From contig CACWSW010000001.1 of NCBI GenBank assembly GCA_902763655.1, positions 5,172 through 69,171 on the forward strand: a stretch of 64,000 bases of DNA, given 5' to 3'. A program made the translations under genes and the position numbers. Shown here one piece after another: positions 16,905 to 63,512 of this stretch. The notes below the pieces were generated by a model. The model saw nothing but the letters and a program-made list of their open reading frames with translations. It was not told the origin of the DNA and made no database searches. Within the stretch, counting starts at the first letter, position 1. Every line of letters begins with the position of its first letter. This DNA is from an uncultured bacterium. GTDB lineage: Bacteria > Verrucomicrobiota > Kiritimatiellia > RFP12 > UBA1067.

Positions 16905-16981
16905 TGCGACTGTAGCTCAATTGGATAGAGCGTTGGCCTCCGAAGCCGAAGGTTGCTGGTTCGATCCCAGTCAGTCGCACC
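16905..16981 (+). tRNA. tRNA-Arg (anticodon CCG)
   Basis: Manual cloverleaf: acceptor GCGACTG/CAGTCGC, D-stem GCTC/GAGC, anticodon stem TTGGC/GCCGA with loop CTCCGAA, T-arm GCTGG-TTCGATC-CCAGT, discriminator A plus CCA. Confidence 0.8.
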
Positions 16982-16983
16982 AA
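16957..16983. repeat. attL core: 27-bp direct repeat GGTTCGATCCCAGTCAGTCGCACCAAT (3' end of tRNA-Arg)
   Basis: Exact 27/27 match with 63486-63512. Flanking bases differ on both sides. Confidence 0.7.
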
Positions 16984-16997
16984 TAGACAAAGCAAAA

Positions 16998-17043: not shown

Positions 17044-17110
17044 TTATGATACAGAATATGATACAATTCCTGCCAGAGAAAAAGAACGCAATAAGGGAAA
17101 TGAGCGAAAA
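17044..17110. repeat. att-proximal repeat block (ATGATACAGAAT ATGATACAAT ... AACGCAATAAGGGAAATGAGCGAAAA); second copy at 63395-63450
   Basis: 24-bp near-identical segment (1 mismatch) plus a 26-bp related segment in the same order. It lies just inside both prophage ends. Candidate integrase arm-type sites. Confidence 0.45.
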
Positions 17111-18243
17111 TGCTTTATAAAAACAACGGCGGAAAGAACTGGTGGGTGATGTTCCGGGACCCTCGTCGGCCAGGAAAATTCATCCGCCAATCGACCGGCA
17201 CGTCCTCCATCGAGCATGCGCGGTCGATCGAGGAGGCCATGCACCTGTCGATCAAGGGCAAGATAGACGACAAGAAGATGAAATCCATCCTCGACGCAAT
17301 CTTCCCTAGGGAGCGCGAGGGATCCGGTCTGCCGATCGGCCAGCTGTGGGCGACGTACGAGCGGTTCATGTCGATGCGCGATCGCAAGCCGGGCGAACGG
17401 CTCGTAAAGCAGCGGAAGAAAAACCTCGAGGACTTCATCGAATGGACGAAGACAGAATTCCCGGTCACGACGGTCGAGGAGGTGACGTTCGACTGCGCGA
17501 TGGCGTACGCCGAATTCCTGAAGAAGAAGTCGAAGCCGAAGGACAAAAAGCACAAGGCGAAGCTGAAGGACAAGAGCCGGAAGGAATACATCGGAAACCT
17601 GTCCACGATCTGGAAGGCTGCCGAGGCGCTGTACGACGTCCGCAACCCGTGGAAGGATCTCCGTCCGGCCGTGCGCGACGGGCAGCGCCACGCCGCTTTC
17701 TCGCGCGCCCAGGAGCGCGCCGTGCTGGAGGCCGCGAAAGCGAGCGCCGTGCCGCATTGGTACGAGGCGTGCCTAATCGCCCGGTGGACCGGACTCCGTA
17801 AACACGATGTCGTGTTCCTGGAATGGAGCAAGGTGGATTTCGAAAAGGGCGTCATTCGCACGAAGCCGATCAAGACGCAAGGCTACAACATCGAGGTCGA
17901 AGTGCCGATGGTGGCCGTTCTGCGCGACGCCCTGAAGGGCCTGTTCGTGAAGGGCAGGAAGTACGTGCTTCCGGAGTTCGCGAAAGTCTATCCGGGCGAT
18001 CCGGAAGACTGCGCCTTCGCCGGGATCCTGAAGGCCGCCGGCGTGACCGATCCGACGATCACGTTTCACAGTTGGCGGCACACCTTCAGGACACGCCTTG
18101 CGGAGGCCGGAGTCAGCAACGACCTCGCAAAGCGCCTCGGCGGATGGACGCAGGACGCGACCGTGCAACGGTACGACCACGCCGACAAAACGGAGGAGAT
18201 TCGCCAGGCGCTCGAGTCTACTTCTTCTGCGGCTCGTCCTTGA
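17110..18243 (+). CDS. int: tyrosine recombinase / phage integrase
   Basis: 377 aa. C-terminal catalytic region HSWRHTFRTRLAEAGV...LGGWT...VQRYDH (R..HxxR..Y). Immediately adjacent to the tRNA attL. Confidence 0.85.
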   Translation: MLYKNNGGKNWWVMFRDPRRPGKFIRQSTGTSSIEHARSIEEAMHLSIKGKIDDKKMKSILDAIFPREREGSGLPIGQLWATYERFMSMRDRKPGERLVKQRKKNLEDFIEWTKTEFPVTTVEEVTFDCAMAYAEFLKKKSKPKDKKHKAKLKDKSRKEYIGNLSTIWKAAEALYDVRNPWKDLRPAVRDGQRHAAFSRAQERAVLEAAKASAVPHWYEACLIARWTGLRKHDVVFLEWSKVDFEKGVIRTKPIKTQGYNIEVEVPMVAVLRDALKGLFVKGRKYVLPEFAKVYPGDPEDCAFAGILKAAGVTDPTITFHSWRHTFRTRLAEAGVSNDLAKRLGGWTQDATVQRYDHADKTEEIRQALESTSSAARP

Positions 18244-21200
18244 CGCGGTAGCGGTATATCTTCCGCAAGTCGCGCACGACCGAATTGCTGTCGCTCATCC
18301 AGCGACCGGCGGCGTCGAGCATGTTGTCCCAGGTGTCGCCGTCTGAGTCGAATATCGCCTCTAGCAGCTTCGCGCCGTCGTTCACTTGGTTCTTCAGCCA
18401 CGATTCCATCGGCAGCATCGAGGAGCCGCCCTTGATCGAGTAGCCCTTGATGGCACGTTCGAGCGTGTACTTGCAGCAGAAACCGGCGACGAAGAGCGAT
18501 CCGTACGGTCCCAGGAGACACGTGATTATCCAGTCATTCAGCTCGTCTTCCGGCGGTTCCTGTCCGAGACACGCTTTGTACAGTTCCCCCATCCAGAAAT
18601 AAGCTGACGAGAGGATGAAGTGATTAAGGAGGATTGCGCGTCCCAGGCTGCCCCAGCGCTTCACCGAGTCCGGACGCGCGATCACCTCGCGGATCGCTCG
18701 CACTTCGTACTGTAGGTACTGCTGTTGCGTGGAGAGGAACTGGAACATGATGCGCCCGAGCTTGTTGCGCCGCTGGATCGAGGTCTGGTTTTCCATGCGG
18801 CCAGACTGCTGCGTCCGTTCGATGATGCTCCACGTCTCGGCCATGGCGTCGTCCTCGGACATGCCGCGATCCAAGCAGTCGCGGTAGATGCCCTGCCCGA
18901 CGACGAGAGCCGGCACGACGTCGCCCAACTTGGTCGTGATCATCGACTTCTGGAGCATACGCTTCAGCCAGCCCGCGTTCTGCTGGCTGAGCGCGTTGCG
19001 GACGGCCTCGGAGGATCCCAGGTTCCAGCGTGTGCGCCTCTGCTCGGAATCCCATATCTTGCCCATCGCGGCCATACCCTCCGGCGTGAATGCGCTCACC
19101 ATGTACTTTGCCGTGTTGACAAGCCCGATCTCGAAGCCGAACGCCGGGATCGAGGTCGTCTGCTTGGCCATGACGCCGATGTTTCCGCCGAGCGCGCACA
19201 GCGCAGTCCAGCCGCGTATCTGGTCGGAGAAATACTGGACGCCCGCCGTGGATCTGTCGTACGCGCCGTGTCCGGCCAGAATGTCCGTGATAAAGCCCTG
19301 CATGAGGTCGTCCACGGACGCGCCGTGGTTCGCCCTGACGGTCTCGCGGAGTTCGGACCGGCCGAAGATGCCGCGCATTTCCAGTCCCAGCTGCGCGTGG
19401 TGCTTCCACTGCGCGGCCTCTTCCATGCGGGACGCCCACATCGAGAAGATGTCGGCCGACGTGTCGAAGTCGCGCTCGTTCCGGACGCGCGGCGTGAGCG
19501 CCTTTGGGAATATCGTCCAGCCGACACCCTGTCCTTTCTCGAGTCCCTGCGTCTCGAGCATCATCTTGACCGGGAAGTAGTTCGGCAGCTCCGCGTACAC
19601 GCCGATCCCGAAGAGCGAATGGCATACGCCGGAGAGGTCGGAGCGGTTGTTCTCGTACCACTGGCCAAGCCATTTCAGCATGTTCATGTCAGCCGGATCG
19701 AGGAGACGCATTATCTCGGCCGCCTGTCCCTCGCGGTGGTGCTTCACGATGTTGTCGTGGTAGCCACCCTCCCAGACGGTCTTCGTCTGGCCGGGATTCT
19801 CCTCGTCCTCGACCTGAACTTTGCGGCCCTCCTGGAGGAGCGAGACGAGCAGCTGGAGCGCGCGGCCCTTGGTGGGCGTGACGCGCTTTCCGCCGACGAC
19901 GCCCATGTACTGCGTGAAGCGCTCGTCCGGAGCCATCATGTCCTTCATGACGGCGTTGAAGCTCTTGCCGTAGATTCCCTCGACCGCGGAGTGAAAGGCG
20001 TCGTTGTGGCGGCGCTTTTCGGCTTCTGACCTGTCGCCGGCCTTCTGCACCTCGCGGGCGATGTAGTCCACGATGTCCTTCACGGCTGCGGCGTCAGCGT
20101 CGGACGCGTGGCGCATGCAGTCCTGCAAAAGCGATATGAAGCCCATGTGGCCGGTGATGAAGCGGTTCAAGGCGTCCGCCTTGCCGCCCTCGCGGATGGT
20201 CGTGCGCTTCGGATCGGCGAACGCGACGGCCAGCAGGTGCGCGGCCTTCTTCGTGCGGATGTCGCGATCTGACATTTCGCGCACGATGTCGTCCGACTCG
20301 CCGCGCGCGAAGTCCTGCCACCATTGGACGGCGGCCTCTATCTCGCCGACGGGCTTGTAGCGGAGCGCGCCGAACTCCCGCAGGACATTCAGCTTGCGGA
20401 TCGTCTCGACGAACTCGCGGCTCTGGTCGCGGTCGCGCCCGGCGTCCGCGAAATCGACGGAGAGCGCGTCAAGCGTCTCTTGGAGCTGTCGGGCTTCTTC
20501 CGCCGCCGCGTCCGGAGTAAGCCACATCGCGTGGCGCATGTAGCGCGCGCGGAGTTCCGCTTCGGCCGAAACCTTGCGCTTGCCCTCTTCCTTGTCGGGC
20601 TTGAACCGTCCCTGCGCACTAAAGCTCTCCCGCAGGAACAGGTCGAGCTTTTCGCACATCTGCTTCTGCGTGTCGCGGATGCGCTGCGCGTTTATGAGCG
20701 CGCCCAGGAACTCCATCTCGGAGATTAGCCCCTGCACGGTCGGCACAGAGTCGAGCTTTGCAATGCCACGCATGGCCGTCTCGCGGCTGCGGGAGTATGT
20801 GAGGTCGCGGCAAAGCTTCGCGTAGACGCTCTGCGCCGTCTTGCGCAGGAACTGCACGGCCACGAGGTCGCGCCACACGTCGGCGTCCTTCGCAAGTCCG
20901 TGTTCCTTGATCCACTGCCGGCGGGCCAGCTCGGCGACAAAGCGCGCAAGGTGGCGCGGGTTCTCCAGGTTGAGCGCGGATTTCTTCACGGCCTCGGCCA
21001 GCGCGTCGCCCTCGGTGCCTTCGCCGGAGGAATCGCCTTCGGCCTCGAGAGCTTCCTCGCCCTCGCCCATGGCGGCCTCGTTCTCGGCGTCGCGCCCGGC
21101 GGCCGCCTTGCGGTTCTTGCGGTTCTGCTCGTCCACGCCTGTCTGTCGTCCGGACGCGGACACGATGTCGTCCACGACGGCCTTCACCTTGGCGTCGATC

Positions 21201-24200
21201 TCGACGGCCGCCTCTTCCGATTCCTCGGCGGACGCCGCACCTTCCTCGTCGGCCGTTCCCTCTCCCTCGCCGGACGTGCCCTGCGGCGCGTCCTTCTCCG
21301 TGAGAGGGTTGTCCGCAAGGTGCATGATCGTCTCGGAGAGGTTGATGCCGTAGGCGTTCTCGATCGCGCCGGAGTCCAGGCCGGTCTGGACGCGCACGGC
21401 GTCCTCCACGATCTGCGCCTGACGCTCCTCGAGCGCCGTGTTCGCCCTCGCCCCGAACGCGCCCAGGCGTGCGCCCTCGCGGGCTTCCTGACGCATCTCG
21501 CGCCCGAACTGCTCGCGCATCGTGTCGGGCAGGTGCTCGAGGACGAGGGAATCGCTCACGCCGCGCCCGATGTCGTCGCGGATGCGCCTTGCGAGCTTCT
21601 GCGCGCCGGACATGACGCGCTGCGACTCTACGCCGATCTTCGTTGTGTCCCATTCGGGATGCAGCCGGCGCATCATCTTCTGCACCGTTGTCACCTTGAC
21701 GGACCTGTCGGACACCTTGTCCGACTTCCCGAGCGCGATCCTGGCGGCGACGGCGGCGGAAAGCAGTTCCTCGTCGCTCATGCCGCGAAGCTGCGGATAG
21801 ACGAGGCCGGAGCGCGGCGCCTCCGTGGAGAAAAGAGTGCCCTGCGTAGCAGGCCAGCTCTTACCCTCTAGAAGCCCAGGCCGCCCCAGTCGTCCCGCAG
21901 CTCCTGTTCCGTCGGACGCTTCGACCAATCTATCCTCTCCACCGGGTGCCCTGCGGACTTCTCCGTAGGCGGGATCGAGGTAGTTGCCGTCTTCCCAGAT
22001 CGGCTTTTGTCCGATGGTGACGTCGTTTGAGAACTGGTCATAGTAGTCAGCCTCCTTCTTCACTAGATTATATGCGCGCGTAGGATTGTCCTGACACGCA
22101 CGTATCACGACAGGGTTGATCCAGCGGCCTGTGGCGAGCGTCCGCAGGAGCGCGCGTCCGAACGCATGGAGTATCGGGACGCGGTTGTTGTGCAGGTACA
22201 CCGTGTACCCTGCGGCATGCCAGTCCGCGATCTTCTTGCGTAGTCCCTCCGCGTCGTCCCCCAGGACGGGCAGCACGACGTTCTCGCCGCGCCGCGGATC
22301 GCCCTCTGCGCGGTTCTGGATGTCGCGGATCATCTGCTTGTTCAACATCGAGCTTTCGGCGTGGACATAGTTCGCGCCGTTACCGTCGTTGAATCCCGGC
22401 AGCTCCTTCTTGCAGGCGTCGCAGTCTAGGACGCGCGAGCGGTACCACACCGAGAGCGCGTTCGCGAACACCGACGACTTGCCCGCAGCCGGCGGCCCGA
22501 CGATGATGTCGATGCGGAAATCCCTCTGCGTCTCGTAGGACGGGTTCTGGAGCGGGATAGGTGGCAAGTCCGGACGGCCCTCGTTCGCCGCGACTATCAA
22601 CGCCTCCTCCTTTGCCGTGCCGTCCTTGCGCGTTTCCAGCGCCTCGTTGTTTTTGCCGGTGATCGAGTCCGCCATCAGCAAGTCGTATATTTTCCGGTGG
22701 ACGGCAAGGCGTTCCGGCGTCGGGTGAGGCTTGCCGTCCTCGCCGGTCACAAAAGCCGTCGGATCGTCCAGTGCCGAATCCTTGCGGAAGTTCGGAAGGA
22801 CGCCGTTCAGTATCTCGTCGGTCGCCTCGGCGGACGTTATGAGCCGATCAAGCAGCGCTGCGGTTTCTTCCGCAGACAAGTCTCCGGCGTTCAACGCCTC
22901 GTCGATTATTGCATTCAGCTCGCGCCCGATCGGACGCTGGAACTGCTTGGCCCTCGCCCATCGAGTTCCCGTTTCCGTGGACGTGCCGTCGGGCTTCAGG
23001 TAGTCCTTCAGCCCAGGCAGCAGGTCGGTGGCACCGCTTACACCGCTGCGCTCGAGTAGTCCTCTCCGAACATTTCGCAGTAGTGCTTCATCGTTGCGAC
23101 GGAGTCTTGCCGCAGCGAGACGATCTCGGAGGGTGTCAGCTCGTAGCTTGCGGAGTTCGCGGGCTTGCGACTGGGTAAGCTCGGCGACGCCGTTTGCGAT
23201 TCCTGCTTCTTTGAGTTCTTCATCGAGGTTGTTCCCGAATTTAGCATACAACGCCTGCATGGCATCGCTGCTGATTGCTATGGTATCAGAAAACTGGCTG
23301 GCCGTCAACGTGGAAATTGCGACAATTTTTCCGCCGCGCGACTGTATGTACTTGCGCAGTTCGTTCAACGTGCCGCCCTGCGTCACGTGGTCGTCCACGA
23401 GAATGTATTCGGCGCCGCGCTGGACGGGGCCAGAGAACGTAGCCACGCGCATCATGCGCTCTACGGCGTTCGCGCCGGTGTGGTTCGCCCGCACCGTCTG
23501 CACGATCCCGTCTGCGAAGCGAAGCCCTGTGATCCTGTGGATCATGAATGCGTACGCGGCGGGAATCTTGTTGCGTCCCGTTGCCTCTTCGGCGTGGACG
23601 TAGGCGACGATCGCGCGCGGATGCTCTGCGGCGAGCGCGCGAAGCTTCTCCCATTTCGGATTTTTCTTCTTCCCGTCCGTCGCCTCTCCCAGGATGTTCC
23701 GGACAAGCTCGAGCGCGGCACCTTCGCTTCCGGCCTTGGCCCGCGTGTGCAGGTCGAGCCACTTCTGCTTGACGCTGGCGAGCGTGGTCTGGATCATCAC
23801 CTTCGGGAAGTTCGCCGGCCACGGCTGGACGGCGCCCTCGACGGGAATGCCCTGCATGATCTCGCGCTTGCGCATCGCGTCGGTTAGTTCCCTCGAGACG
23901 GAGTAGCGCGCTTCTCCAAGATCGACGCGGCTGGTTCGGCTGTCTGTGAGACGGTTGACCTTCTTGTTGTCAACGATGAGGGGATCGTAACTCCTGACGC
24001 TACCCCATTTCCCCGACGCATCCTGCCAGAGAACGTCCGTCACGTTTCCGTTCTCTATTTGGCGGTATATCGCTTGCTGCGCGGCCATGCCGTAGTCGTC
24101 CATCGACTGGTCGCCGACTACGAACAGGAACGCTCCGCCTGTTGCGCCGCGATAGTCGGCCAGGATGTCCGTGATCCTCTTGTCGTCGGCACCGTCGAAC

Positions 24201-27200
24201 GTTTCCGTCGGGACGTTGGCGACCGACGTTACGAAATTCGCCTTGCTGTCAACGGTTATGAACGTCAGCATCTTGCCGCGTTCGGATGCCATGCGCTGGA
24301 GTCGGGCGTAGAACACGGCGATGTTGTCGAGGCCGAACTTCTCCCCGCTCTCTCTCAACGAGTCATGGAACGCGGCATTGTCCTTTGTTGGCTTCTCGAA
24401 CGGATTGCCATGGAAGGACGCCTCCAAATCCGCTGCGCTCATGCGGCGGATGTTGTAGTCGCCCCATTGGTTCATTTCGGCGTATTGGTCATGGTCGATG
24501 ATGACATGCCCGTCGAGAAAGACGCCCTGCCGGTCGAAGTACGTGCGAAGCTCTCCCGTCACGTTTATGTCCGCCCGCGAAGGGAACACATTCCCGGACG
24601 GGTGGTTGTGGAGAAGCCACACGCCGTCCGGCTTCACCTTGGCGATCATGCGCTCGATCTCGGCGTAGGTGTTCTCGCGCGGCGTGTGCACCGTCGTCGC
24701 GGACGCGCCAGGAAGCCGCGCCGTCACGCCGGTCTGCCAGACAACCTCGCCGTTCCTGGTGAAGATGTAGCGGAAAGTCTCGAAGCACGGGTTCCTGTAC
24801 ACCTGCGCGAGCGCGGCCAGGTCTTTTGCCGTCCTTATGGTCTTTCCTATGAGCGTCGTCCGCGCCTCGCCGTGGAAGTCGCGGTTTATCGAGTTTCCCA
24901 GCTCCGTTCCGCCGATCTGGTCGAGGACGCGCTGCGCCTCGGTCTGCGCGGCGCGGAGGTTCGTCTTCTCGGTCTCGGAAAGCCCCTCGGTCGAGACGGA
25001 GTAGCGCACGTCGGGGTTGCCGGAAAATTCGCCGTTGTTGTCGGTGGCTGACTTTACCTGCGCGCCGCCGTCAAGCGGCACGTAGCTGACGCCTCGCAAA
25101 GTATAGCCCTGCTCGTTTTCCGCTGGGTCGCCGCCCTCGTCGTAGACGATGCCGTCGTACTTGTCGCCGAAATTGTCCTTCAGGAACTCTCCGTCCACGA
25201 CCGACGCCTCTCCCCAATCAAGCGCGCCAGATTTGCCGGTCTGGAATTCGTGGTCGGGATAGGCCTTCTTCAGGTCTGCGAGGCATTTCGGATCGCGGAT
25301 GTCGAACGGACGGCGAATGTCCAGATAGTATGCGCGGACATTGCCATATCTCTTGGCATACTCCTGATCGCCAGTGAAGTACGCCTCGGGCATCACGACG
25401 CCCTTGCCGGTTTCCTGTGCCAGAGGATCGAACGCTGCGCCCCGGTAGACGACAAGCGGCTCTCCGTTGGCGTCTACTATTTTTGAACAATCTTCATTGC
25501 CCGGATTGACGCCCGAAAGGAAATATGATATCTTACGGTCCGCATGAGGCTTACGGCCCGTGCTTCCAGCGCCAAGGCTACCGGTCTGACTTCCGGCAAG
25601 ATTGGCGCTTGCATTATATACGAAGACGTCCGACACTTCGGCAGCATGCACCAGATTCTTGTCCGCCACCGTAGAGGTTTTGCTCTCCCGCACGGTGAAG
25701 TGTACGAAAAACTCTCCTTCGGCGCTCTTGAACTTGTTGACGTAATGGTGATAGTTCTCGATGTTAGAGGTGTGGTCCTTGTGTCCTTCGACCGGGTTTT
25801 CCTTTTCGCTCCAGCATCTGATCGCGCTCTCGAAGAGTTTCTTGTATGCAGCGACATACTTGCGCTGATAGACCATCTTTCCCGCCGTGTTCCCCGGGAA
25901 ACGCACCTTGCGCCCGTCACGGCCGTTGGTGACAATGCCGAAGTCCACAAACGCCTCGGCTATTGCGTCCTTGTTCGCCAAGGGCTGTACGCTTGAAATG
26001 TCTACCGTGGCGATTCCATCCAATATGCCTGACGCTTCTATGTCGAACCAGCGTTTCGTTATCTCAGCCTTCTCCCAGTCGCCGAACCACTTCTTAAACG
26101 TGGGCGTCCTGACCATCACCCACTGGCTTTCGTTGAGCCGCGTAGGTTTCCCGTTCGGAGCCTTCATCCAGCCGCGCTTCTTCGTGCCGTCCTCGTTTGT
26201 GTAGCGGGCGACAACTTCGTCATATTCGAGTTGCGCCTGCGGCGACAGGCTGAACCGCGCGCCGCCCTCGCCGGCGGCCCTCTGCGCGGCCATGACCTCG
26301 GCGCGGGTGGCTGGCGTCCCGCCGAACATGTCCTCCGTCTCGGTGTTGACTGCGCGGGCGTTCTTGATGTAGTCCGCCAGGTAGCCGGAAATGAGGTCGA
26401 TGACACGCTTCTTCCCCGCCTCGCTCTCCACGTCCTCGCGGTCGAACGAGCGCAGCTGTTCGGATTTTGCGAACAGGTCGCCCAGGATTCGCGCCTCGTC
26501 CGACGGCGCGCGAAACATGTCGCCCTGCGACATGAACGCCTCCCATGAGAGGCCTCGCTTGCGCGTCCCGTCCTTGGCCGTCTCGCGCCAGTCGTGGCGC
26601 GTCTTGCCTTTCTCGGTTCTGGCCGTCTCGTCCTTGTCGCGCCATTCCGTGAAGAGCTGCAAGGCCTCCGCGAGCGGAGCGCGCAGGTCGTAGGCTGGCT
26701 TCGCGTCCGCGAGCGCCATCAGCTCAGGCGTCATCTTCATCAGCGCGCGCAGCTCGCTCTGCATGTCGAGACGTCCGGCGTTCGACATGATCTTGTTCAA
26801 GAGCGCGTTGTTCCCCTCGCCGCCCAGCAGCACGGCGAGCGCGGCGTTCTGGATGCGCGTCTGCCCCTCTTCGGTGAGCGATCCGTCTTCCGCGACCATG
26901 CCCTGCGCGCCGGTCTCCTGGCGGAACTTCCCGATGGCGTCGCCGCTCTTCGTCTCGTCGATCCGTCCGTCGGCCCGGAACTCCATGCGCGGCAGGAGGT
27001 TGTTGTCGATCAGGATCTTCGCGTCGTTCGACGCCTGTTCGCGGACGTTGAAGCCCCGGTTCTGCGACTCGTTCGCGAGCCGCACGACCTCGTGGACGTC
27101 CGCCTTTCCGTCCGGAGACTCGATGCGCTCGAGCACGAACACCAGAAGCGGCTTCTTCACGTCGTCGCCGATCTCGATGCCGCGCCTGGCTGCATCCTCG

Positions 27201-30200
27201 CGCACGAACTTCTCGAGCTCGCCCGCTGTCCCTTTCGCATACGCGAGCCTGGCACCGTTCACGCGGTGGTTACCGATGATGACGTTTGAGTTATTCAAAA
27301 GCCACACAATCCCGTTATTTGCTATCGGCTGCACGGTCCCGATCTGGAGCGGATCGGGATTCGCGCCGATCTTCTCGACGAGCGCGCGGCTTTCCTCGCT
27401 CTTGTCGTCGCGGTTCTGGTTGCCTCGGTCGTGGTAGTCGGCGTCGGTCGAAGTGATTACGCCCGTCTCAACGTCGCGCACTTCCAGCCGTCCGACGAGC
27501 TTCACTGGGCTGTTCGGAAGTCCGACCTTGTAGTACCGCTGGTTCGGCGTGGCGGCGTCCGCAGGGTGTTCTGCGGTGGCGGCCTGTACGGGCGCCGCTG
27601 TCGGCGCGGGAGTGACGGTAGGAGCAGGACTCGCAGGAGCTGGGGACGGCTCTTCCTCTTTGATTTCGGCCTGTGCCTCGGCCTCCGCCTCCGCGCGGTC
27701 GGCGTCCGTCACTTCAACCGGCATTGAGGATTTCGGCGTGGCCGTGGGTTCCGCCGTCTGCTGCGGCACTTTGCGAAGCTCCACGCCCAGGGTTCCGCTT
27801 CCAAGTTCGCCGCGCAGGATTCTGTCGTAGAGTCCTTTCAGCTGGTACGGCTTGCCGGTCTTGGGATCCGTCACCTCGTCGGAAGGGCCGAACTGACCGA
27901 AGAATTTGATGATCTTCCCAGCCCAGGAGTCGAGCATCTTGTCGAAGCGGGAGGAAACGGCGTGGGAAACGTAGTGGCCGCTCGCGTAGCGTTCCATTTC
28001 GTGCGCCATGCGCTCGTCGAGCTTGCGTTCCCAGTTGTCCGCCGTCACGTCGATGCCGAGCGTCTTTGCGAGCTGCTGCACGTCCGCGTCGGCCAGAGTC
28101 CCCCGGACGAACTGCCAGAGCGAGTGGAAGGTTTCATGGCGCACGGTCGCCTGTGTCGCCGCCGGGCCGTAGCCGATGTCGGCGATGTGACCGTTGGCAA
28201 GGCGTATCACGCTGTCGGCGTTCACGCGCACCTTTTGCCCCTTGGAATCGGTCAGCTCGAACACGCCGCTTCCCATTCTCGCGGCGTTGGACGCGAAAAG
28301 CGCCTCCTGATACCGCTGGGCGTCGGAGAGCATTTCCCACCTTATGCCGTCGCCCAGCTCCTCGTGCCGCTCGTTGAAAGAGTCGCCGAACGCGCTGCCG
28401 ATCTTGGCGTTCTCGTCCGCCTCTGCACGCAGCTCGTCCGAGAAGTCGCCCACGCGGTAGGCGATCGTCTTCTCCGTGCCATCGTCCATCCTGACGCGAC
28501 CGGAGTAGATGCCGTTTTCCGGATCGGACGCGAAGCTGCCATCGACATAGCCGGGAAGGACGGTCTTGATCGTCGCCTCGTCGATGTCCGCGAGCGACAT
28601 GTTCAAGGACGTCCACGCCCGCGCCTGCGGAGAGAACGCCGTCGCCTCGGCCTCGGTCTGGAGGTACTGCGCCATCACTTCGGCCGTCTTCACGTCCACG
28701 CCGGCGGCGTCCGCGATCTCCTGAACGGCGTCGCCGGTCTGCGGATCGCGCCAGGCGCGCCGTGCCGCCGTGATCGCCTCCTCGAAGCGGTGCGGGTTCT
28801 CGGCCTCGTCGCCGTCCTCCTCGCCCTGCCAGTGCTTCTCGACGGCGGCGCGGACGTTCACGGCCTGCTGGATCACGTCAACGAGTCCGGCGTCGTAGTC
28901 GAATGCCTTGGAAGGGTCTTCGCCTCTCTGGTCGAGGCTGAGCATCGTGTCCTCGGCTGTTGCACCGGCGCGACGGTTCGCGTGGCGCGTCATGGCGTTG
29001 TGGATGTGCTGCCGCCGCGTCATGTTGCCGATGGTCGTCACGCCGAATCCGAGCGACGACGGCACCATGTCGGCAGCCGTGTCGATGAAAGTTGCGTAGT
29101 CGTTCGGAAGGGTGGCGGCGAAGCTGTCCCAGAGCGCCTTGGCCTCGTTCGCCAGCGTGGCGTTGCCGTCCTTGCGGAGTTCCTGGCAGAGCTTGTCGAA
29201 CGCCTTGCCGTGTTCGATCGCCATCTGCTGGAGAGGTTCTTCGACAGCGCCCTCGGTGAGCGTGACCTTCACGCCCTCGGTGAAGCCTTTCGAGACGCGG
29301 TTCGCGAGCCACTTCCTGAAGCCCGCCGCGCCGTCCGTCTTGATCGCCTGTGCCATCGCCGCGAACGTGAGCGACTTGATCTGCGCGGGCGCAAGCGACG
29401 ATTCGAGTCCGGGCACGTAGAGCTGTTCGATCTTGGCGTTTATGAGTCCGATCGCCGCAGCGGTCAAGATGGATTCCTCACGGCTGATGCCCGCCGCGTC
29501 CGCATTGGCGATGTACTCCGACGCGAACGCGCTGAACGCCGACGCTTCGCCGGCGGCCCACATTCCGGCGCCCGCCGCGTCCTTCCACTTCGCCGCCTTG
29601 ACGACGTTCGGGATCTCGCGGAGCGCCGCCGTGTACTGATCGACCGCCGCAAGCTGCCGCCTCATGGCGATGGCGGATGCAAACTCGCTGACCTTCTTCG
29701 CGCCCTTGCCCGCCTTGACCGCTCCCTCCACGTCCGCGAGCCAGCGCGTACGGGATGCCTCGGCGGCCGCCTTCGCGAGCGTAAGCCCGCCCTCGGCGAC
29801 TTCCTTCTGCAACTTGGCTCGGACGATCGTGGCCTGTGCGCCCTTGGCCAGCTTGCCGCCCTTGCCGATCATCGAGTAGGGAATGAACCAGTGCATGTTC
29901 TCCGCGAGTCCCTGGAACGCTTCGCCAAAAAGCGAGTCGGCTTCAGGAAGGTTCTGCTTCATCGCCTGTTCGGCGCGCGCGATCGCGTCCCATCCCTTGA
30001 AGAACGCCTTGCGCTCGTCCTCGTCCATCGCGCACTTCGCGTATGTCCACATGGCCGCGTCTCTGGCCATTTCGCCAGTGTCCGTGACGAGTCCGACGAC
30101 AGACTGCTGGAAGCCGTAAAGCCCCAGCTGGAAGCGGTTCATCCAAGTGTCGTCCGTGAAGTCCGTCTGGATTCCGAGGATGCGTCCCTTCTTCTGGTCG

Positions 30201-31060
30201 CCGCGCATCAGCGAGAACGCGGCGTACACGCGGTCGCGCTCGTCCTCCGGCAGTCCTTCGATGTTCGCCGCGTCCGGCGTTCCGTCGCTGAACGACTTGG
30301 CGAGGAGGTAGCCCGCGCGGTCGCTCAGGCCGTGGGCGAACTGGAGGAACGTCGCGAGCGTCTGGCGGCGGGAGAGCTTCGTGTCGTAGTCGGCGATCAC
30401 GTCGGCGCGGTAGGCGGCCTTCTTCTCCTCGTCCATCGAGTCGTAGAACGAGTTGCGGATCGCGTCTTCGCGCCATTCCCTGTCGATCTCCTGTCCCTTG
30501 CGCTGTTCCTCGGTCCATGGAATCGCGAATGCCGACATGTCGCCGGCGGCCATGGCGACAAGCGGATTCGTGCCGCGTTCGCCTTTCATCTTTGACTTGA
30601 CCATGTTCCCGGTCGTCTCGTGCTCGAGCGCGTACTTGAACTTGGCCTCGTCGTCCATCTGCCGCCACTTGGTGTACTCCGGGTCTTCGATCAGCGTGTA
30701 GTCGCCCTTGACGAACTTCCGCAGCATGTCGATGTTCGCGCACGGATCCTTCGACGCGCGCTTGCCGAACGCGACGGATCCGTCCTCGTCCGGAAGGCCA
30801 AACATTCCTTCCGTGACGCTCTGGTAGAGCGCGGACGCGCCCGCGTCGTCGAGCTTGGAGACGTCCGTGGAGAAGAGCATGTCGGCGCTGGCCTTGAATC
30901 TGGCCTTGCGCTCATTCTTCGTACGGTCGTCGAAGTCGTCCGTGCCGCCGGCGAACGACGGCGGGCGGACGAACGTGCCGCCGCCCGTCTTCCGCTCGCC
31001 CATCCCGAGGAAATCAGTCACGTCACTTGGCAGTCTTTCCGTCTTCTCTTCTTCCGCCAT
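18218..31060 (-). CDS. giant multidomain 'polyvalent' virion protein (~4280 aa) with JAB/RadC, PRTase, P-loop kinase, HExxH and ParB-like motifs
   Basis: Single uninterrupted 12.9-kb reading frame. The ATG at 31060 has a GGAG RBS. Recognisable motifs are listed in the findings. Sits at the end of the structural module, like ejection proteins. Confidence 0.75.
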   Translation of the reverse strand: MAEEEKTERLPSDVTDFLGMGERKTGGGTFVRPPSFAGGTDDFDDRTKNERKARFKASADMLFSTDVSKLDDAGASALYQSVTEGMFGLPDEDGSVAFGKRASKDPCANIDMLRKFVKGDYTLIEDPEYTKWRQMDDEAKFKYALEHETTGNMVKSKMKGERGTNPLVAMAAGDMSAFAIPWTEEQRKGQEIDREWREDAIRNSFYDSMDEEKKAAYRADVIADYDTKLSRRQTLATFLQFAHGLSDRAGYLLAKSFSDGTPDAANIEGLPEDERDRVYAAFSLMRGDQKKGRILGIQTDFTDDTWMNRFQLGLYGFQQSVVGLVTDTGEMARDAAMWTYAKCAMDEDERKAFFKGWDAIARAEQAMKQNLPEADSLFGEAFQGLAENMHWFIPYSMIGKGGKLAKGAQATIVRAKLQKEVAEGGLTLAKAAAEASRTRWLADVEGAVKAGKGAKKVSEFASAIAMRRQLAAVDQYTAALREIPNVVKAAKWKDAAGAGMWAAGEASAFSAFASEYIANADAAGISREESILTAAAIGLINAKIEQLYVPGLESSLAPAQIKSLTFAAMAQAIKTDGAAGFRKWLANRVSKGFTEGVKVTLTEGAVEEPLQQMAIEHGKAFDKLCQELRKDGNATLANEAKALWDSFAATLPNDYATFIDTAADMVPSSLGFGVTTIGNMTRRQHIHNAMTRHANRRAGATAEDTMLSLDQRGEDPSKAFDYDAGLVDVIQQAVNVRAAVEKHWQGEEDGDEAENPHRFEEAITAARRAWRDPQTGDAVQEIADAAGVDVKTAEVMAQYLQTEAEATAFSPQARAWTSLNMSLADIDEATIKTVLPGYVDGSFASDPENGIYSGRVRMDDGTEKTIAYRVGDFSDELRAEADENAKIGSAFGDSFNERHEELGDGIRWEMLSDAQRYQEALFASNAARMGSGVFELTDSKGQKVRVNADSVIRLANGHIADIGYGPAATQATVRHETFHSLWQFVRGTLADADVQQLAKTLGIDVTADNWERKLDERMAHEMERYASGHYVSHAVSSRFDKMLDSWAGKIIKFFGQFGPSDEVTDPKTGKPYQLKGLYDRILRGELGSGTLGVELRKVPQQTAEPTATPKSSMPVEVTDADRAEAEAEAQAEIKEEEPSPAPASPAPTVTPAPTAAPVQAATAEHPADAATPNQRYYKVGLPNSPVKLVGRLEVRDVETGVITSTDADYHDRGNQNRDDKSEESRALVEKIGANPDPLQIGTVQPIANNGIVWLLNNSNVIIGNHRVNGARLAYAKGTAGELEKFVREDAARRGIEIGDDVKKPLLVFVLERIESPDGKADVHEVVRLANESQNRGFNVREQASNDAKILIDNNLLPRMEFRADGRIDETKSGDAIGKFRQETGAQGMVAEDGSLTEEGQTRIQNAALAVLLGGEGNNALLNKIMSNAGRLDMQSELRALMKMTPELMALADAKPAYDLRAPLAEALQLFTEWRDKDETARTEKGKTRHDWRETAKDGTRKRGLSWEAFMSQGDMFRAPSDEARILGDLFAKSEQLRSFDREDVESEAGKKRVIDLISGYLADYIKNARAVNTETEDMFGGTPATRAEVMAAQRAAGEGGARFSLSPQAQLEYDEVVARYTNEDGTKKRGWMKAPNGKPTRLNESQWVMVRTPTFKKWFGDWEKAEITKRWFDIEASGILDGIATVDISSVQPLANKDAIAEAFVDFGIVTNGRDGRKVRFPGNTAGKMVYQRKYVAAYKKLFESAIRCWSEKENPVEGHKDHTSNIENYHHYVNKFKSAEGEFFVHFTVRESKTSTVADKNLVHAAEVSDVFVYNASANLAGSQTGSLGAGSTGRKPHADRKISYFLSGVNPGNEDCSKIVDANGEPLVVYRGAAFDPLAQETGKGVVMPEAYFTGDQEYAKRYGNVRAYYLDIRRPFDIRDPKCLADLKKAYPDHEFQTGKSGALDWGEASVVDGEFLKDNFGDKYDGIVYDEGGDPAENEQGYTLRGVSYVPLDGGAQVKSATDNNGEFSGNPDVRYSVSTEGLSETEKTNLRAAQTEAQRVLDQIGGTELGNSINRDFHGEARTTLIGKTIRTAKDLAALAQVYRNPCFETFRYIFTRNGEVVWQTGVTARLPGASATTVHTPRENTYAEIERMIAKVKPDGVWLLHNHPSGNVFPSRADINVTGELRTYFDRQGVFLDGHVIIDHDQYAEMNQWGDYNIRRMSAADLEASFHGNPFEKPTKDNAAFHDSLRESGEKFGLDNIAVFYARLQRMASERGKMLTFITVDSKANFVTSVANVPTETFDGADDKRITDILADYRGATGGAFLFVVGDQSMDDYGMAAQQAIYRQIENGNVTDVLWQDASGKWGSVRSYDPLIVDNKKVNRLTDSRTSRVDLGEARYSVSRELTDAMRKREIMQGIPVEGAVQPWPANFPKVMIQTTLASVKQKWLDLHTRAKAGSEGAALELVRNILGEATDGKKKNPKWEKLRALAAEHPRAIVAYVHAEEATGRNKIPAAYAFMIHRITGLRFADGIVQTVRANHTGANAVERMMRVATFSGPVQRGAEYILVDDHVTQGGTLNELRKYIQSRGGKIVAISTLTASQFSDTIAISSDAMQALYAKFGNNLDEELKEAGIANGVAELTQSQARELRKLRADTLRDRLAAARLRRNDEALLRNVRRGLLERSGVSGATDLLPGLKDYLKPDGTSTETGTRWARAKQFQRPIGRELNAIIDEALNAGDLSAEETAALLDRLITSAEATDEILNGVLPNFRKDSALDDPTAFVTGEDGKPHPTPERLAVHRKIYDLLMADSITGKNNEALETRKDGTAKEEALIVAANEGRPDLPPIPLQNPSYETQRDFRIDIIVGPPAAGKSSVFANALSVWYRSRVLDCDACKKELPGFNDGNGANYVHAESSMLNKQMIRDIQNRAEGDPRRGENVVLPVLGDDAEGLRKKIADWHAAGYTVYLHNNRVPILHAFGRALLRTLATGRWINPVVIRACQDNPTRAYNLVKKEADYYDQFSNDVTIGQKPIWEDGNYLDPAYGEVRRAPGGEDRLVEASDGTGAAGRLGRPGLLEGKSWPATQGTLFSTEAPRSGLVYPQLRGMSDEELLSAAVAARIALGKSDKVSDRSVKVTTVQKMMRRLHPEWDTTKIGVESQRVMSGAQKLARRIRDDIGRGVSDSLVLEHLPDTMREQFGREMRQEAREGARLGAFGARANTALEERQAQIVEDAVRVQTGLDSGAIENAYGINLSETIMHLADNPLTEKDAPQGTSGEGEGTADEEGAASAEESEEAAVEIDAKVKAVVDDIVSASGRQTGVDEQNRKNRKAAAGRDAENEAAMGEGEEALEAEGDSSGEGTEGDALAEAVKKSALNLENPRHLARFVAELARRQWIKEHGLAKDADVWRDLVAVQFLRKTAQSVYAKLCRDLTYSRSRETAMRGIAKLDSVPTVQGLISEMEFLGALINAQRIRDTQKQMCEKLDLFLRESFSAQGRFKPDKEEGKRKVSAEAELRARYMRHAMWLTPDAAAEEARQLQETLDALSVDFADAGRDRDQSREFVETIRKLNVLREFGALRYKPVGEIEAAVQWWQDFARGESDDIVREMSDRDIRTKKAAHLLAVAFADPKRTTIREGGKADALNRFITGHMGFISLLQDCMRHASDADAAAVKDIVDYIAREVQKAGDRSEAEKRRHNDAFHSAVEGIYGKSFNAVMKDMMAPDERFTQYMGVVGGKRVTPTKGRALQLLVSLLQEGRKVQVEDEENPGQTKTVWEGGYHDNIVKHHREGQAAEIMRLLDPADMNMLKWLGQWYENNRSDLSGVCHSLFGIGVYAELPNYFPVKMMLETQGLEKGQGVGWTIFPKALTPRVRNERDFDTSADIFSMWASRMEEAAQWKHHAQLGLEMRGIFGRSELRETVRANHGASVDDLMQGFITDILAGHGAYDRSTAGVQYFSDQIRGWTALCALGGNIGVMAKQTTSIPAFGFEIGLVNTAKYMVSAFTPEGMAAMGKIWDSEQRRTRWNLGSSEAVRNALSQQNAGWLKRMLQKSMITTKLGDVVPALVVGQGIYRDCLDRGMSEDDAMAETWSIIERTQQSGRMENQTSIQRRNKLGRIMFQFLSTQQQYLQYEVRAIREVIARPDSVKRWGSLGRAILLNHFILSSAYFWMGELYKACLGQEPPEDELNDWIITCLLGPYGSLFVAGFCCKYTLERAIKGYSIKGGSSMLPMESWLKNQVNDGAKLLEAIFDSDGDTWDNMLDAAGRWMSDSNSVVRDLRKIYRYRVKDEPQKK

Positions 31061-32894
31061 CGTCTTTACTCCGTTCTTCCATCTGATCTGCTTCCCATCT
31101 CGTACGCGTCTCGCGCTGCATGTCCATGACGTTGCGGACGGTCGCGTCGCGGTTCTTGTCAAGCCCGCCCTTCATCCACCCGGTCTTCAGGCGTGTTATC
31201 TCGCGCTCGACGACGCCCTCGCGGTTCATGTCCGGCCCCAGGGCGCGGAGCGTCCTGAGAAGCGTGTCGCCGTAGGCCAGCAGGTCGGAAGCCGAAATGG
31301 TTTCCGGCTTTTCCTGGGCGAGCATGTCGGCCAGTGTAATCGGATCGGCAAACATCTTCTCGAAGAATCCAAACTGTCTCGGAGCGGATCGATCGGGCGC
31401 ATAGTAGCCCGTCGTGTCGTTTCCCGCGTCCTTCCGCGCGGTCGCGGTCGGCTCGCCGCCCTTGTCGAGGTCAGCGCTGTAGCCGAACGCCAGGTAGAAC
31501 TTGCGCATGGCGTTCGCCTCCTGGTCGGAGAGCTGTCCGGAAAGGCGCGTCTCGAAGCTCCGCATGAAGGAAGGGGAGAGCTGCTTGCCGAGCGAAAGCG
31601 CGCGGAACTTCCGCCAGATGGCGGCCTGCGCGTCGTTCGCGTCGTCCTGCGAAAGCGATCCGTCCATTTTCAGGAGGTCGAGCGTCGCAAGCGAGCGCGC
31701 AAGGTTCTCCTCGTTTCCCTTGATCGCGTCGGCGGACGCCTTCTCCTTGGCCTTGGACGCGGCCGTGCGCATTTCGCTCGCGGCGTCCATGTATGCCATG
31801 GCCCGCTTGGGGTCTGTCATGCGCAGCGTCGGGTCGCGGCCCATCGCTTCGTAGGCCTCGGCCCAAAACTCCTGCGGCACGTCGCGAAGCTTCAGCTCGC
31901 GTTCCGTGAAGTCCCTGCCGACGGCCTGGCGCGCCTCGCGCTCTTCGGCCTCCTTCTGGGCGAGAAACAGACGCTTCTCCTTCTTCACCTCTCCGATGAG
32001 CGTCTTGCGGTACTCCCCGTCCACCGTACGCGATCCGCCGGGAAGGTTGTCGGCTATGAGGTCGGGAAGGGCGTCCTTCAAGCCGCCCTTGACGGCCTCC
32101 TCCACCTTGTCGAAGTCCTCTGCTGACGTGCATCCCTGTAGCGAGTTGTCGATGAAGTCGGCGGCGAGCTGGACGGCCAGCGCCTCGCGGTTCGCCTTTC
32201 GCGTCTCTGGCGTGGCGAGCGTGAGCGTGTCCACGCGTTCCTGCTGGGCAAAGATGTCGGGCAGGACCTCGGTGCGTCCGTTCTTCCAGATCATGCGCTG
32301 CGTGGCGAGGTTCCCCTTGGCGGAGTCGAGTTCCATGCGCCGGTACTCTCTGGCCTGATGGTCGGCGAGTCGCGATACGGTGGCGCGCCGGTAGTTCGCG
32401 AGCTTGTCCATCGTGCGCTCGCGCACACGGTCGTTCGCGTCGATGGAGTCGCCGATCTTCCTGAACGTGTCCGCGAAGGCCTTGTCCCATTCGTCCACGA
32501 GGGTCTTTGTGCCCTCGCCGGTGCGTAGGTAGAAGCCGCGTTTCTGGCCTTCGAGGTGCTTCCGGTCGGGCGCGTTCCAGTCGGTGATCTCACGGTCGTC
32601 GCGGCCCATCTTCTCCATGTTGTCCATCATGGCGTTCGCGTAGTCGTCAACCTTGCGGTCCTCCTCGCGCTGCTGGATGGCGCCTATCGCGCCTGCGACC
32701 GCTCCGAGCGCGCGCACGCCCGCACCGATGGCGTCGCCCATCATCATTCCGGGGCGTGCCATGTGCGGCGCGTATATGCCGGGGCGATGGTGCTGGACGG
32801 TGCCGATGTCCGTGCTTGTCGCGCCGTGTGCCATGCTCGTGGAACCAAGGTTTCCGAGCCGTTCGCTTCTCTGCGTTATGTTGATCACGCCCAT
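31023..32894 (-). CDS. phage internal virion/structural protein, unknown function
   Basis: 623 aa, charged, coiled-coil-rich. Lies between the tail genes and the giant ORF. Confidence 0.4.
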   Translation of the reverse strand: MGVINITQRSERLGNLGSTSMAHGATSTDIGTVQHHRPGIYAPHMARPGMMMGDAIGAGVRALGAVAGAIGAIQQREEDRKVDDYANAMMDNMEKMGRDDREITDWNAPDRKHLEGQKRGFYLRTGEGTKTLVDEWDKAFADTFRKIGDSIDANDRVRERTMDKLANYRRATVSRLADHQAREYRRMELDSAKGNLATQRMIWKNGRTEVLPDIFAQQERVDTLTLATPETRKANREALAVQLAADFIDNSLQGCTSAEDFDKVEEAVKGGLKDALPDLIADNLPGGSRTVDGEYRKTLIGEVKKEKRLFLAQKEAEEREARQAVGRDFTERELKLRDVPQEFWAEAYEAMGRDPTLRMTDPKRAMAYMDAASEMRTAASKAKEKASADAIKGNEENLARSLATLDLLKMDGSLSQDDANDAQAAIWRKFRALSLGKQLSPSFMRSFETRLSGQLSDQEANAMRKFYLAFGYSADLDKGGEPTATARKDAGNDTTGYYAPDRSAPRQFGFFEKMFADPITLADMLAQEKPETISASDLLAYGDTLLRTLRALGPDMNREGVVEREITRLKTGWMKGGLDKNRDATVRNVMDMQRETRTRWEADQMEERSKDDGGRREDGKTAK

Positions 32895-32910: not shown

Positions 32911-33744
32911 TCACCAGAACGCCCAACCCGATCCGCCGCCGGAGCCTCCCGATCCGCTTGATCCGCCGGAGCTGCCTGTGCTGCCGTATTTCGAGTCCCA
33001 TGACGTGTAGGCGCTTGCGCCGCCGCCAAGCAGTCCGGAGATGAGCGCCAGCCGCCCGGCCTTCTTTGTCGCCCGCGCCGCCTTTCTTCCGTAGGCAAGC
33101 GTCTCCGCCGCAGACTGTCTCGCGTTCTCCAGCGTGAGCGCCGCAGCCTTTCGCGCGTCGGCGGCCGACTCGGCGTCGCTCTGCGCCTTGAACACGAGGT
33201 TGTTTGCGCCCTGGAGCGAGTTGGCTGCGTTCCGTTGCTGGGTGCGCTTCTCCTCCTCGAACGTCCACTGGTTCATCTTGGCGTTATCGAGGATGGTGCT
33301 GATGTCGGCCTGCCCCTCCGTGGCGGAGGACTGGATGATGTAGCCGAACGTGTCGTTCGGGTTCGCGTCCACGGCGAAGCCGTTGCCGGCGAACTGGGCG
33401 TACTGCTGGCCGATCTCCTGCGCGAGGATGCGCGATCGGCGTGCGGCCTCGCGCTCGCCCTTCAGCTGCTCGATGTTCGCCTTCTCCTGCGCGATCTCGC
33501 CCTGCCGCAGCTCCTCGTCGGCATGAAACTTCTCCTTGTTGGCCTCCAGCATGTCCATGAGGGACCGTCGGTCAAGCGCACGCGCCTCGGCGTTCTGCGC
33601 CTCCGCCGCGGCGGCGGCCTCTCGCTGTATCTGCTGCGCCTGTATCTGCGACTGCTGCCGGATGAGCTTCGCCTCCTCGCCCGAGTTGATGTACGACGTT
33701 ATGCCGGAGGCGACGCTGTTGACCGCTGCTGCTATGAATGACAT
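32911..33744 (-). CDS. phage structural protein with Gly/Ser-rich C-terminus
   Basis: 277 aa. Q/A/E-rich coiled-coil N-terminus and a GSSGGSSGSGGSGGGSGW tail. Confidence 0.4.
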   Translation of the reverse strand: MSFIAAAVNSVASGITSYINSGEEAKLIRQQSQIQAQQIQREAAAAAEAQNAEARALDRRSLMDMLEANKEKFHADEELRQGEIAQEKANIEQLKGEREAARRSRILAQEIGQQYAQFAGNGFAVDANPNDTFGYIIQSSATEGQADISTILDNAKMNQWTFEEEKRTQQRNAANSLQGANNLVFKAQSDAESAADARKAAALTLENARQSAAETLAYGRKAARATKKAGRLALISGLLGGGASAYTSWDSKYGSTGSSGGSSGSGGSGGGSGWAFW

Positions 33745-55988: not shown

Positions 55989-56003
55989 GCCTTGCTCCTT
56001 TCC

Positions 56004-63485: not shown

Positions 63486-63512
63486 GGTTCGATCCCAGTC
63501 AGTCGCACCAAT
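63486..63512. repeat. attR core: 27-bp direct repeat GGTTCGATCCCAGTCAGTCGCACCAAT
   Basis: Exact copy of 16957-16983. Only the tRNA 3' portion is present here, so this is not a second tRNA. Confidence 0.7.

Follow-up and report, generated by a model that had tools for sequence, protein, structure and literature searches.

A predicted RadC-clade JAB hydrolase domain within a giant polyvalent protein of a prophage from an uncultured Kiritimatiellia bacterium

Introduction

RadC-type JAB domains occur in most bacteria and on many plasmids and phages. Here we describe one that lies in the middle of a giant protein, encoded by what looks like a complete prophage in a 64,000-nucleotide stretch of DNA from an uncultured bacterium of the Kiritimatiellia (assembly GCA_902763655.1, contig CACWSW010000001.1, positions 5,172 to 69,171 of the forward strand); this whole stretch is called the window, and coordinates refer to it. 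The domain shares with the cellular RadC/YicR protein (PF04002; PRK00024, TIGR00608; crystal structure 2qlc, from Chlorobium tepidum) the fold, the HNHPSGxxxPSxxDxxxT core and the upstream glutamate. Unlike cellular RadC, a protein of ~220 residues, it has a signature of its own (YRNPxFETxR, SRLP, GHVvID), lacks the N-terminal HhH-type domain and is embedded at residue ~2,100 of a chain of 4,280.

The string of unrelated enzymes in which it stands is of the kind described for polyvalent proteins by Iyer, Burroughs, Anand, de Souza and Aravind (2017, J Bacteriol; PMC5512222; RadC architectures in their Fig. 4H). That survey already listed RadC as a component domain of polyvalent proteins, gave LPD38, DdrB-ParB and InPase as confined to phages and RadC as confined to conjugative elements, and described P1 DdrB and the N4 virion RNA polymerase as packaged. 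Its authors favoured the view that RadC processes nucleic acids or nucleotides, because they saw in it no groove for a ubiquitin tail and found it positionally equivalent to nucleases (PMC5512222). The protein reported here resembles the described examples in its ART-PolyVal, ddrB-ParB, LPD3, Zeta-like kinase, PRTase-like and RadC-JAB modules, in its location on a mobile element beside virion genes, and in the shuffling of its modules. It departs from the survey in that RadC and the phage-only ddrB-ParB stand together in one prophage protein, in that its RadC subfamily turns up commonly in phage contigs (313 stretches of IMG/VR), where it co-occurs with the phage-only LPD38 and InPase domains, and in that roughly one fifth of the members appear to carry a previously undescribed, inactive JAB-like partner.

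Two further groups of systems invite comparison. Podoviruses encode giant virion proteins (phi24B gp47, N4 vRNAP, T7 gp14-16), whose very large genes likewise lie in or near a module for internal virion proteins and tail fibres. Proteomics of phi24B virions has revealed the polyvalent protein gp47 (2,811 aa), for which a role as ejection protein was proposed (bioRxiv 10.64898/2026.04.10.717836); gp47 has LPD5, LPD1, LPD38 and MuF-C domains and no reported JAB, and whereas it was detected in virions, packaging of the giant protein described here is a prediction. Searches of Pfam, PHROG and PDB sequences detected no similarity of the giant protein to gp47, N4 vRNAP or T7 gp16. The JAMM/MPN+ enzymes with MPN- partners (Rpn11-Rpn8, CSN5-CSN6, BRCC36-Abraxas), together with Cap3 and the Bil/Bub JAB proteins, share with our domain the E...HxH...S..D residues and the core fold. 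As in the MPN+/MPN- pairs, an active domain stands beside a probable inactive one, here fused in cis; its structural match to those isopeptidases is weak, with template modelling (TM) scores of 0.25-0.45 on the target against 0.8 for RadC, and no gene for a ubiquitin-like partner was found among the scanned open reading frames (ORFs).

Results

The motif is the core of a RadC-clade JAB domain with a conserved catalytic site

A sequence-only reading of the window had placed a RadC-like JAMM motif at 24557-24610, as residues 2185-2202 of a giant ORF. This placement was borne out, and the strand, which had been left unsaid, is the minus strand: its 18 codons (54 bases) translate to HNHPSGNVFPSRADINVT, and the plus strand at the same positions gives RHVYVRPRREHIPGRVVV, which is devoid of the motif. 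Residue numbers throughout follow the 4,314-codon ORF (18218..31162, minus strand) counted from its first TTG; counted from the ATG at M35, the motif comprises residues 2151-2168 of a 4,280-residue protein. It holds the zinc ligands H2185 and H2187 as well as S2195 and D2198. The pattern HNHPSG-x3-PS-x2-D-x3-T has 11 fixed residues and a single occurrence when the window is translated in six frames, with a rough chance expectation of ~1e-9 over ~128,000 six-frame positions; a chance origin can be regarded as negligible.

Three lines of evidence, namely Pfam, a profile search of the PDB and an AlphaFold2 model compared by Foldseek, delimit a JAB domain of the RadC clade at aa 2085-2250 (24413..24910, minus strand). 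Pfam RadC (PF04002) matched aa 2169-2230 with 35.7 bits against a gathering cut-off (GA) of 22.1 (E 9.6e-9), and the same residues are matched by phrog_10276, annotated as "DNA repair protein". RadC 2qlc was the sole match when all PDB sequences were searched with a profile (E 4.4e-9). The AlphaFold2 model, built from a 37-sequence alignment, reached a pLDDT of ~90 across the JAB core, and its best PDB match was again 2qlc, the crystal structure of RadC, at E 3e-8 and with a TM of 0.79-0.80 on the target. PfJAMM1 (5lda) came second (E 4e-4, TM 0.41), followed by BRCC36 and Rpn11 at much lower similarity, and all PDB matches with E<1e-3 were JAB proteins, comprising the 2qlc chains and PfJAMM1 5lda. 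Deubiquitinases matched weakly, with a TM of 0.25-0.45 on the target and E values between 1e-3 and 4e-2. The sequence-only reading had made its RadC-like assignment depend on a significant JAB/MPN match and on a JAMM fold in a predicted structure, and both were found.

The residues of the JAMM signature, E ... H-x-H-x(7)-S-x(2)-D, are present as E2128, H2185, H2187, S2195 and D2198. The upstream catalytic glutamate, E2128 (codon at 24779..24781, minus strand), lies within the family motif YRNPxFETxR. In an alignment of the JAB region of the query with its best 150 homologues (151 sequences in total), E2128, H2185, S2195 and D2198 are each conserved in 151/151 and H2187 in 150/151. At least 90% conservation was also seen at R2123, P2125, T2129, R2131, R2149, P2151, N2186, P2188, G2190, T2202 and H2219, and the alignment yields the subfamily signature YRNPxFETxR ... 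SRLP ... HNHPSGxxxPSxxDxxxT ... GHVvID. We therefore read the motif as the core of a RadC-clade JAB (JAMM/MPN+) domain whose catalytic site appears intact and strongly conserved, and, because the JAMM residues are invariant across the 151 aligned homologues bar the one substitution of H2187, we regard the domain as very likely to be active. It is not an orthologue of cellular RadC: the NCBIfam models of the cellular protein score it far under their cut-offs, PF20582, the N-terminal HhH-type domain of the cellular protein, gave no match in Pfam scans of the giant protein, and a canonical RadC taken for contrast (P0004) carries both PF04002 and PF20582.

The JAB domain is one module of a giant polyvalent protein

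The gene that encloses the domain (18218..31060, minus strand) encodes 4,280 residues from the ATG at M35, the mechanical ORF extending to the TTG at 31162 (4,314 aa). A GGAG lies 10 nt before this ATG at 31060, and the orthologue P0005 aligns from window aa 37; the true start is probably the ATG, and the TTG at 31162 probably goes unused. The GC content at third codon positions (GC3) is 0.83, typical of coding sequence. The gene accounts for 27.6% of the prophage.

Pfam, PHROG and fold evidence together resolve at least eight modules in the single polypeptide, all encoded on the minus strand. Upstream of the JAB domain lie ddrB-ParB (aa 1244-1341, 27140..27433; PF18763, 37.5 bits against a GA of 27.6), the large polyvalent-protein-associated domain 3, LPD3 (aa 1742-1828, 25679..25939; PF18798), and an ADP-ribosyltransferase of the ART-PolyVal family (aa 1897-2046, 25025..25474; PF18760, 45.6 bits against a GA of 31.2, over the full profile length). 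LPD3 scored 23.5 bits in the whole protein and 27.7 against a GA of 27 as a fragment, thus reaching its threshold only as a fragment. Downstream lie a PRTase-like domain with the motif VDDHVTQGGT (aa 2471-2690, 23093..23752; phrog_22413, E 1.9e-44), a Zeta-toxin-like P-loop kinase with the Walker A motif GPPAAGKS (aa 2880-3038, 22049..22525; PF06414, 27.1 bits against a GA of 22.3) and a C-terminal module of ~1,050 residues (aa 3181-4234, 18461..21622), which was delimited by BLASTP, hydropathy and homologue search. Elsewhere the PRTase-like region matched weakly (Pfam Pribosyltran at 20.6 bits against a GA of 26.3; NCBIfam XopC and PRTase), and searches of PDB sequences and NCBIfam with the whole protein returned nothing beyond RadC and these weak PRTase/XopC matches.

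The N-terminal 1,200 and C-terminal 1,100 residues gave no family match. The otherwise unannotated N-terminal part holds the only HExxH of the protein, HETFH at aa 1009 (28124..28138), a candidate zincin peptidase site defined by its motif, for which Pfam scans gave no HMM support. The C-terminal module has one hydrophobic segment by hydropathy (aa 4211-4230), is conserved in orthologues and is 24% identical in a distant giant protein, P0006 (BLASTP). Polyvalent proteins as described by Iyer et al. (2017) join several (2-15) unrelated domains in a single chain encoded by a phage or conjugative element. Because many such domains, including ART-PolyVal, ddrB-ParB and LPD3, are joined here in a protein of a prophage bounded by attachment-site (att) repeats, we classify it as a textbook case.

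The subfamily is common in phage polyvalent proteins

When 1.84 billion representative proteins were searched exhaustively by HMMER with aa 2085-2440, 1,524 relatives were found at E<=1e-3, and 857 cluster representatives passed E<=1e-10; a word-indexed homologue search with the JAB region had given 4 matches only. Most of the best 150 homologues are giants, 127 of them spanning 1,000-5,767 residues, and in most of these 127 the JAB domain sits at a relative position of 0.4-0.7. The JAB module alone is common to the homologues: coverage peaks there at ~150/150, and other regions are shared by few of the 150 (ParB by ~17, ART by ~10, the C-terminal region by 2-4). Two HNHP-type JAB copies were found in 6 of the 127 giants, P0007, P0010 and P0011 among them. 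When 21 homologous giant proteins were scanned with Pfam, RadC was detected in 17, ART-PolyVal in 6, LPD3 in 3, LPD38, ddrB-ParB, LPD39 and Zeta in 2 each, and InPase in 1.

IMG/VR holds 313 stretches that code for the subfamily. We retrieved 80 viral loci, and in the 66 in which the motif was located the enclosing ORF had a median length of 2,375 aa and in all but two cases (64/66) reached at least 1,000 aa. At ten viral loci the 1,587-aa tail protein of our prophage has a homologue that lies ~3 kb upstream of the giant ORF, and a PHROG scan of 134 neighbouring ORFs revealed tail proteins, fibres or spikes (8), the internal virion protein family phrog_418 (6) and integrases (5). Given the giant phage ORFs, the phage neighbours and the phage-only co-domains, the JAB subfamily can be counted as a common part of phage-type polyvalent proteins, which extends the 2017 survey.

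The subfamily also occurs on conjugative plasmids, for example one of Nitrosomonas. The closest plasmid relative, on that plasmid (NZ_CP133084.1; locus L001, 8925-12948), is a 368-aa stand-alone JAB protein, whose gene lies directly downstream of one for a 965-aa zincin-like metallopeptidase and beside relaxase and coupling-protein genes; this arrangement resembles the polyvalent layout divided over separate genes. Separately, a 152-aa ORF (P0002; locus L002, 10001-10459, in JAZUMF010000102.1 of GCA_045603485.1) is 63% identical to the N-terminal half of the JAB domain and ends before the HNH motif. It is isolated amid cellular genes of ordinary kinds and followed by ~1.3 kb of uncalled DNA, and looks like the decayed remnant of a related element.

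A probable inactive second JAB follows the presumed active one

A further 130-150 residues past the JAB core, which align in 29 of the 150 homologues (about one fifth), form an extension at aa ~2270-2400 (23963..24355, minus strand). Its AlphaFold2 model (pLDDT 75.5, pTM 0.71) had RadC 2qlc as best PDB match, over nearly the full length (probability 0.99, E 0.01, TM 0.5-0.56, 121-127 columns), followed by Rpn11, JAMM1, BRCC36 partners and proteins of the cytidine-deaminase fold. The extension lacks the JAMM Glu, HxH, Ser and Asp; one other Asp, in a TDV motif, is invariant in 22 aligned sequences. Sequence comparison yielded nothing comparable: hhalign gave the pairing of extension and JAB core a probability of 2.6%, short of significance, and neither Pfam nor the PDB sequences produced a match to the extension. 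The extension is thus probably an inactivated duplicate of a RadC-like JAB (a pseudo-JAB), a reading drawn from the moderate-confidence fold match, which would make an active/inactive tandem. The pseudo-JAB may serve as a structural partner of the active domain.

Orthologues differ by whole cassettes

Two orthologues, P0005 (4,113 aa) and the ORF of locus L003 (4,065 aa), are collinear with the giant protein by BLASTP, with two exceptions. First, both are missing a cassette of LPD3 and ART (aa 1656-2049, 25016..26197, minus strand) and join window aa ~1640-1655 straight to aa ~2050; this cassette appears to have been gained or lost as a module, immediately upstream of the JAB domain. Second, in both a different stretch of ~160-190 residues is inserted behind the pseudo-JAB. 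Identity to P0005 is a mosaic, with 73% in the N-terminal part, 89% in the JAB module and 80% in the C-terminal part; the corresponding values for the L003 ORF are 69%, 55% and 79%. In a metagenomic fragment (P0001) the two domains are in the opposite order to that in the window, with the PRTase-like domain upstream of the JAB. A search with the C-terminal 815 residues found only fragments of orthologous giant proteins, from Kiritimatiellae-type metagenome-assembled genomes (MAGs), and one protein of 26% identity.

The giant gene lies at the internal-virion end of a podovirus-like prophage

Exact repeat search identified a 27-bp direct repeat, GGTTCGATCCCAGTCAGTCGCACCAAT, at 16958..16984 and, identically, at 63486..63512 (plus strand). 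The left copy overlaps the 3' end of tRNA-Arg(CCG), called by ARAGORN at 16906-16982. Together the repeats bound a prophage of ~46.5 kb, apparently complete, integrated at tRNA-Arg and wholly within the window. A tyrosine integrase gene (17110..18243, plus strand; Pfam Phage_integrase, E 6.4e-20) is convergent with the giant gene; their 3' ends overlap by 26 nt (18218-18243), so that no space is left between them for an intergenic terminator.

On the minus strand the prophage genes run from primase, large terminase, T7-type portal, candidate protease and GP7-type capsid protein to tail proteins (one of 1,587 aa), an internal virion protein homologue, a 623-aa protein and the giant gene. The internal virion protein homologue (32911..33744, minus strand; phrog_418, E 1.4e-9) is two genes upstream of the giant gene. 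The 623-aa protein (31023..32894, minus strand), which has a homologue at the same place in L003 and no family match in Pfam and PHROG scans, adjoins the giant gene and overlaps its probable ATG by 38 nt (31023-31060). The candidate protease, taken as a head protease, lies at 47295-48071. The prophage also encodes a 1,094-aa primase-type protein (52789-56073, minus strand), a PcfJ-like protein (56317-57864, minus strand) and a homologue of the DNA polymerase III beta clamp (60362-61471, minus strand). The prophage is podovirus-like, and a DNA-level search with the structural module against 50,697 phage records returned no match, from which the lineage can be taken to be absent from GenBank phages. 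A Lentisphaeraceae MAG holds an orthologous prophage with the same integrase and the same 623-aa, internal virion and tail protein neighbours. Pfam and PHROG scans of the prophage ORFs, which took in part of the small ones, turned up neither ubiquitin-like genes nor genes for E1 or E2.

The left 17 kb of the window consist of cellular genes (dinB, exosortase, purC, queC/D/E, aldose epimerase). Among them, queC-queD-queE for 7-deazaguanine synthesis (13372-15060, plus strand) lies ~2 kb from the integration tRNA; being outside the att repeats, it is taken as cellular.

Discussion

We consider it likely that the motif marks a competent RadC-clade JAB domain within a polyvalent protein that travels in the virion and is ejected along with the DNA, and that this domain is a hydrolase leaning towards a nucleic-acid or nucleotide-type substrate over a peptide bond. 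Synthesis of the giant protein would fall late, at the time of the internal virion proteins; the capsid would then take it up, and ejection would carry it into the cell along with the phage DNA; its conserved C-terminal module, a candidate anchor, would probably serve packaging or ejection. The ParB-like NTPase/nuclease, the ADP-ribosyltransferase, the JAB hydrolase, the PRTase-like domain and the Zeta-like kinase could then be at work minutes after entry, with nucleic acids or the molecules of host defence or signalling as their targets. We infer packaging and timing from gene position and precedent: the giant gene lies at the internal-virion/tail-fibre end of podovirus-like structural modules, a position that is conserved, and gp47 of phi24B, P1 DdrB and the N4 polymerase provide the parallels. 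The JAB domain is predicted to be a zinc-dependent hydrolase, with a slight lean towards substrates that bear phosphate or carboxylate groups. Conservation of R2123, R2131 and R2149 in at least 144 of the 151 sequences suggests an anionic substrate, in line with the view of Iyer et al., and papers and reviews of 2025-26 still describe RadC as uncharacterised or as a putative nuclease.

Several points weigh against this proposal. To our knowledge, all biochemically characterised JAMM domains are (iso)peptidases. The structural neighbours beyond RadC in the Foldseek comparison with the PDB are likewise all peptidases, which favours a peptidase. The Pfam RadC alignment covers the C-terminal half of the profile only (positions 55-116 of 121), and the NCBIfam RadC models PRK00024/TIGR00608 scored far under their cut-offs (36.2 bits against 180 and 28.8 against 133.85). 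PHROG, Pfam and homologue searches matched the C-terminal module to no known ejection protein, and our literature searches found no defined substrate or experimental activity for RadC-clade enzymes.

The sequence-only reading had identified a RadC-like JAB/JAMM domain in a giant ORF of a mobile element, which stands, and had given it two possible functions, polyprotein processing and the countering of ubiquitin-like and other defence systems, which are not supported and in part run counter to what has been argued for this clade. It did not place the ORF among the polyvalent proteins. Its term "metalloprotease" was an assumption, as no RadC-clade JAB has demonstrated peptidase activity.

The first of these functions would make the JAB domain a self-processing peptidase that cuts the 4,280-residue chain at inter-domain linkers after packaging or ejection and frees the enzymes. 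The biochemical record of JAMM domains speaks for it, as do the fold neighbours beyond RadC (Rpn11, BRCC36, AMSH, PfJAMM1), the mid-chain position between unrelated enzymes, at a relative position of 0.4-0.7 in most of the 127 giants, and the tandem of active and inactive domains, which recalls the MPN+/MPN- isopeptidase pairs. Two JAB copies in 6/127 are also reminiscent of what is seen with processing zincins (PMC5512222). That 82 of the 127 JAB-bearing giants (65%) lack HExxH, the usual candidate processing peptidase, could be read in the same direction; yet the 35% that have it equal the 36% background of all polyvalent proteins, so zincins are neither replaced nor avoided and the count does not discriminate a processing peptidase from an effector. 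The framework of Iyer et al. assigns polyprotein processing to zincin peptidases (PMC5512222), and the giant protein has a HETFH motif of its own, with a candidate phage head protease at 47295-48071 as well. Moreover, RadC has been argued to have no groove for a peptide tail (PMC5512222), and no conserved cleavage motif or ubiquitin-like domain was identified, the Pfam scan of the 21 homologues included. Polyprotein processing by the JAB domain is thus unsupported by the data at hand, and we hold self-processing to be unlikely, though it remains a serious alternative.

A related proposal takes the JAB domain and the dead JAB together as an injected MPN+/MPN- isopeptidase in cis, which might cut the giant protein on arrival or remove ubiquitin-like conjugates made in defence; we put it forward as quite doubtful.

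Under the second function, the JAB domain would be an injected deconjugase that strips ubiquitin-like modifications, of the Bil/Bub type or on the Cap2-primed CD-NTases of CBASS, and so disarms defence. The JAMM catalytic set is intact, the domain would be delivered beside other presumed anti-defence enzymes of the polyvalent protein, and the bacterial BubCD JAB structure 9ea4 is among the weak fold matches (rank 23, E 0.01). Set against this are the TM of 0.8 to RadC versus 0.25-0.45 to deubiquitinases on the target, the lack of ubiquitin-like, E1 and E2 genes both among the scanned prophage ORFs and in the Pfam scan of the 21 homologues, and the argument that RadC has no groove for a ubiquitin tail (PMC5512222). 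Literature searches found neither a link between the RadC clade and ubiquitin-like proteins nor an anti-defence role of RadC, and we judge a deconjugase highly improbable.

That the motif is a chance match or a functionless, decayed remnant of a cellular radC, as the low NCBIfam RadC scores (36 against 180, 29 against 134) and the missing N-terminal domain might suggest, has virtually no likelihood and was ruled out: the pattern occurs once in six frames, inside a full domain that Pfam, PDB and fold comparisons support, its catalytic residues are invariant in the 151 sequences bar one substitution of H2187, 857 cluster representatives were found at E<=1e-10, and P0005 is 89% identical over the JAB module.

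As a discovery the locus is incremental, since the 2017 survey had already covered the class and the domain as well as the link between them. It adds that RadC-JAB domains are widespread in phage polyvalent proteins, that a subset carries a probable dead JAB, and that a single gene can make up more than a quarter of a prophage. A distinct RadC subfamily is very widespread, almost solely in giant phage proteins whose injection along with the DNA is probable. If the isopeptidase reading were true, it would provide the first defined biochemical activity of the RadC clade and a new class of injected anti-defence enzyme. An apparently complete prophage, together with orthologues that differ by whole cassettes, offers a handle on the function of RadC and on the delivery and processing of polyvalent proteins.

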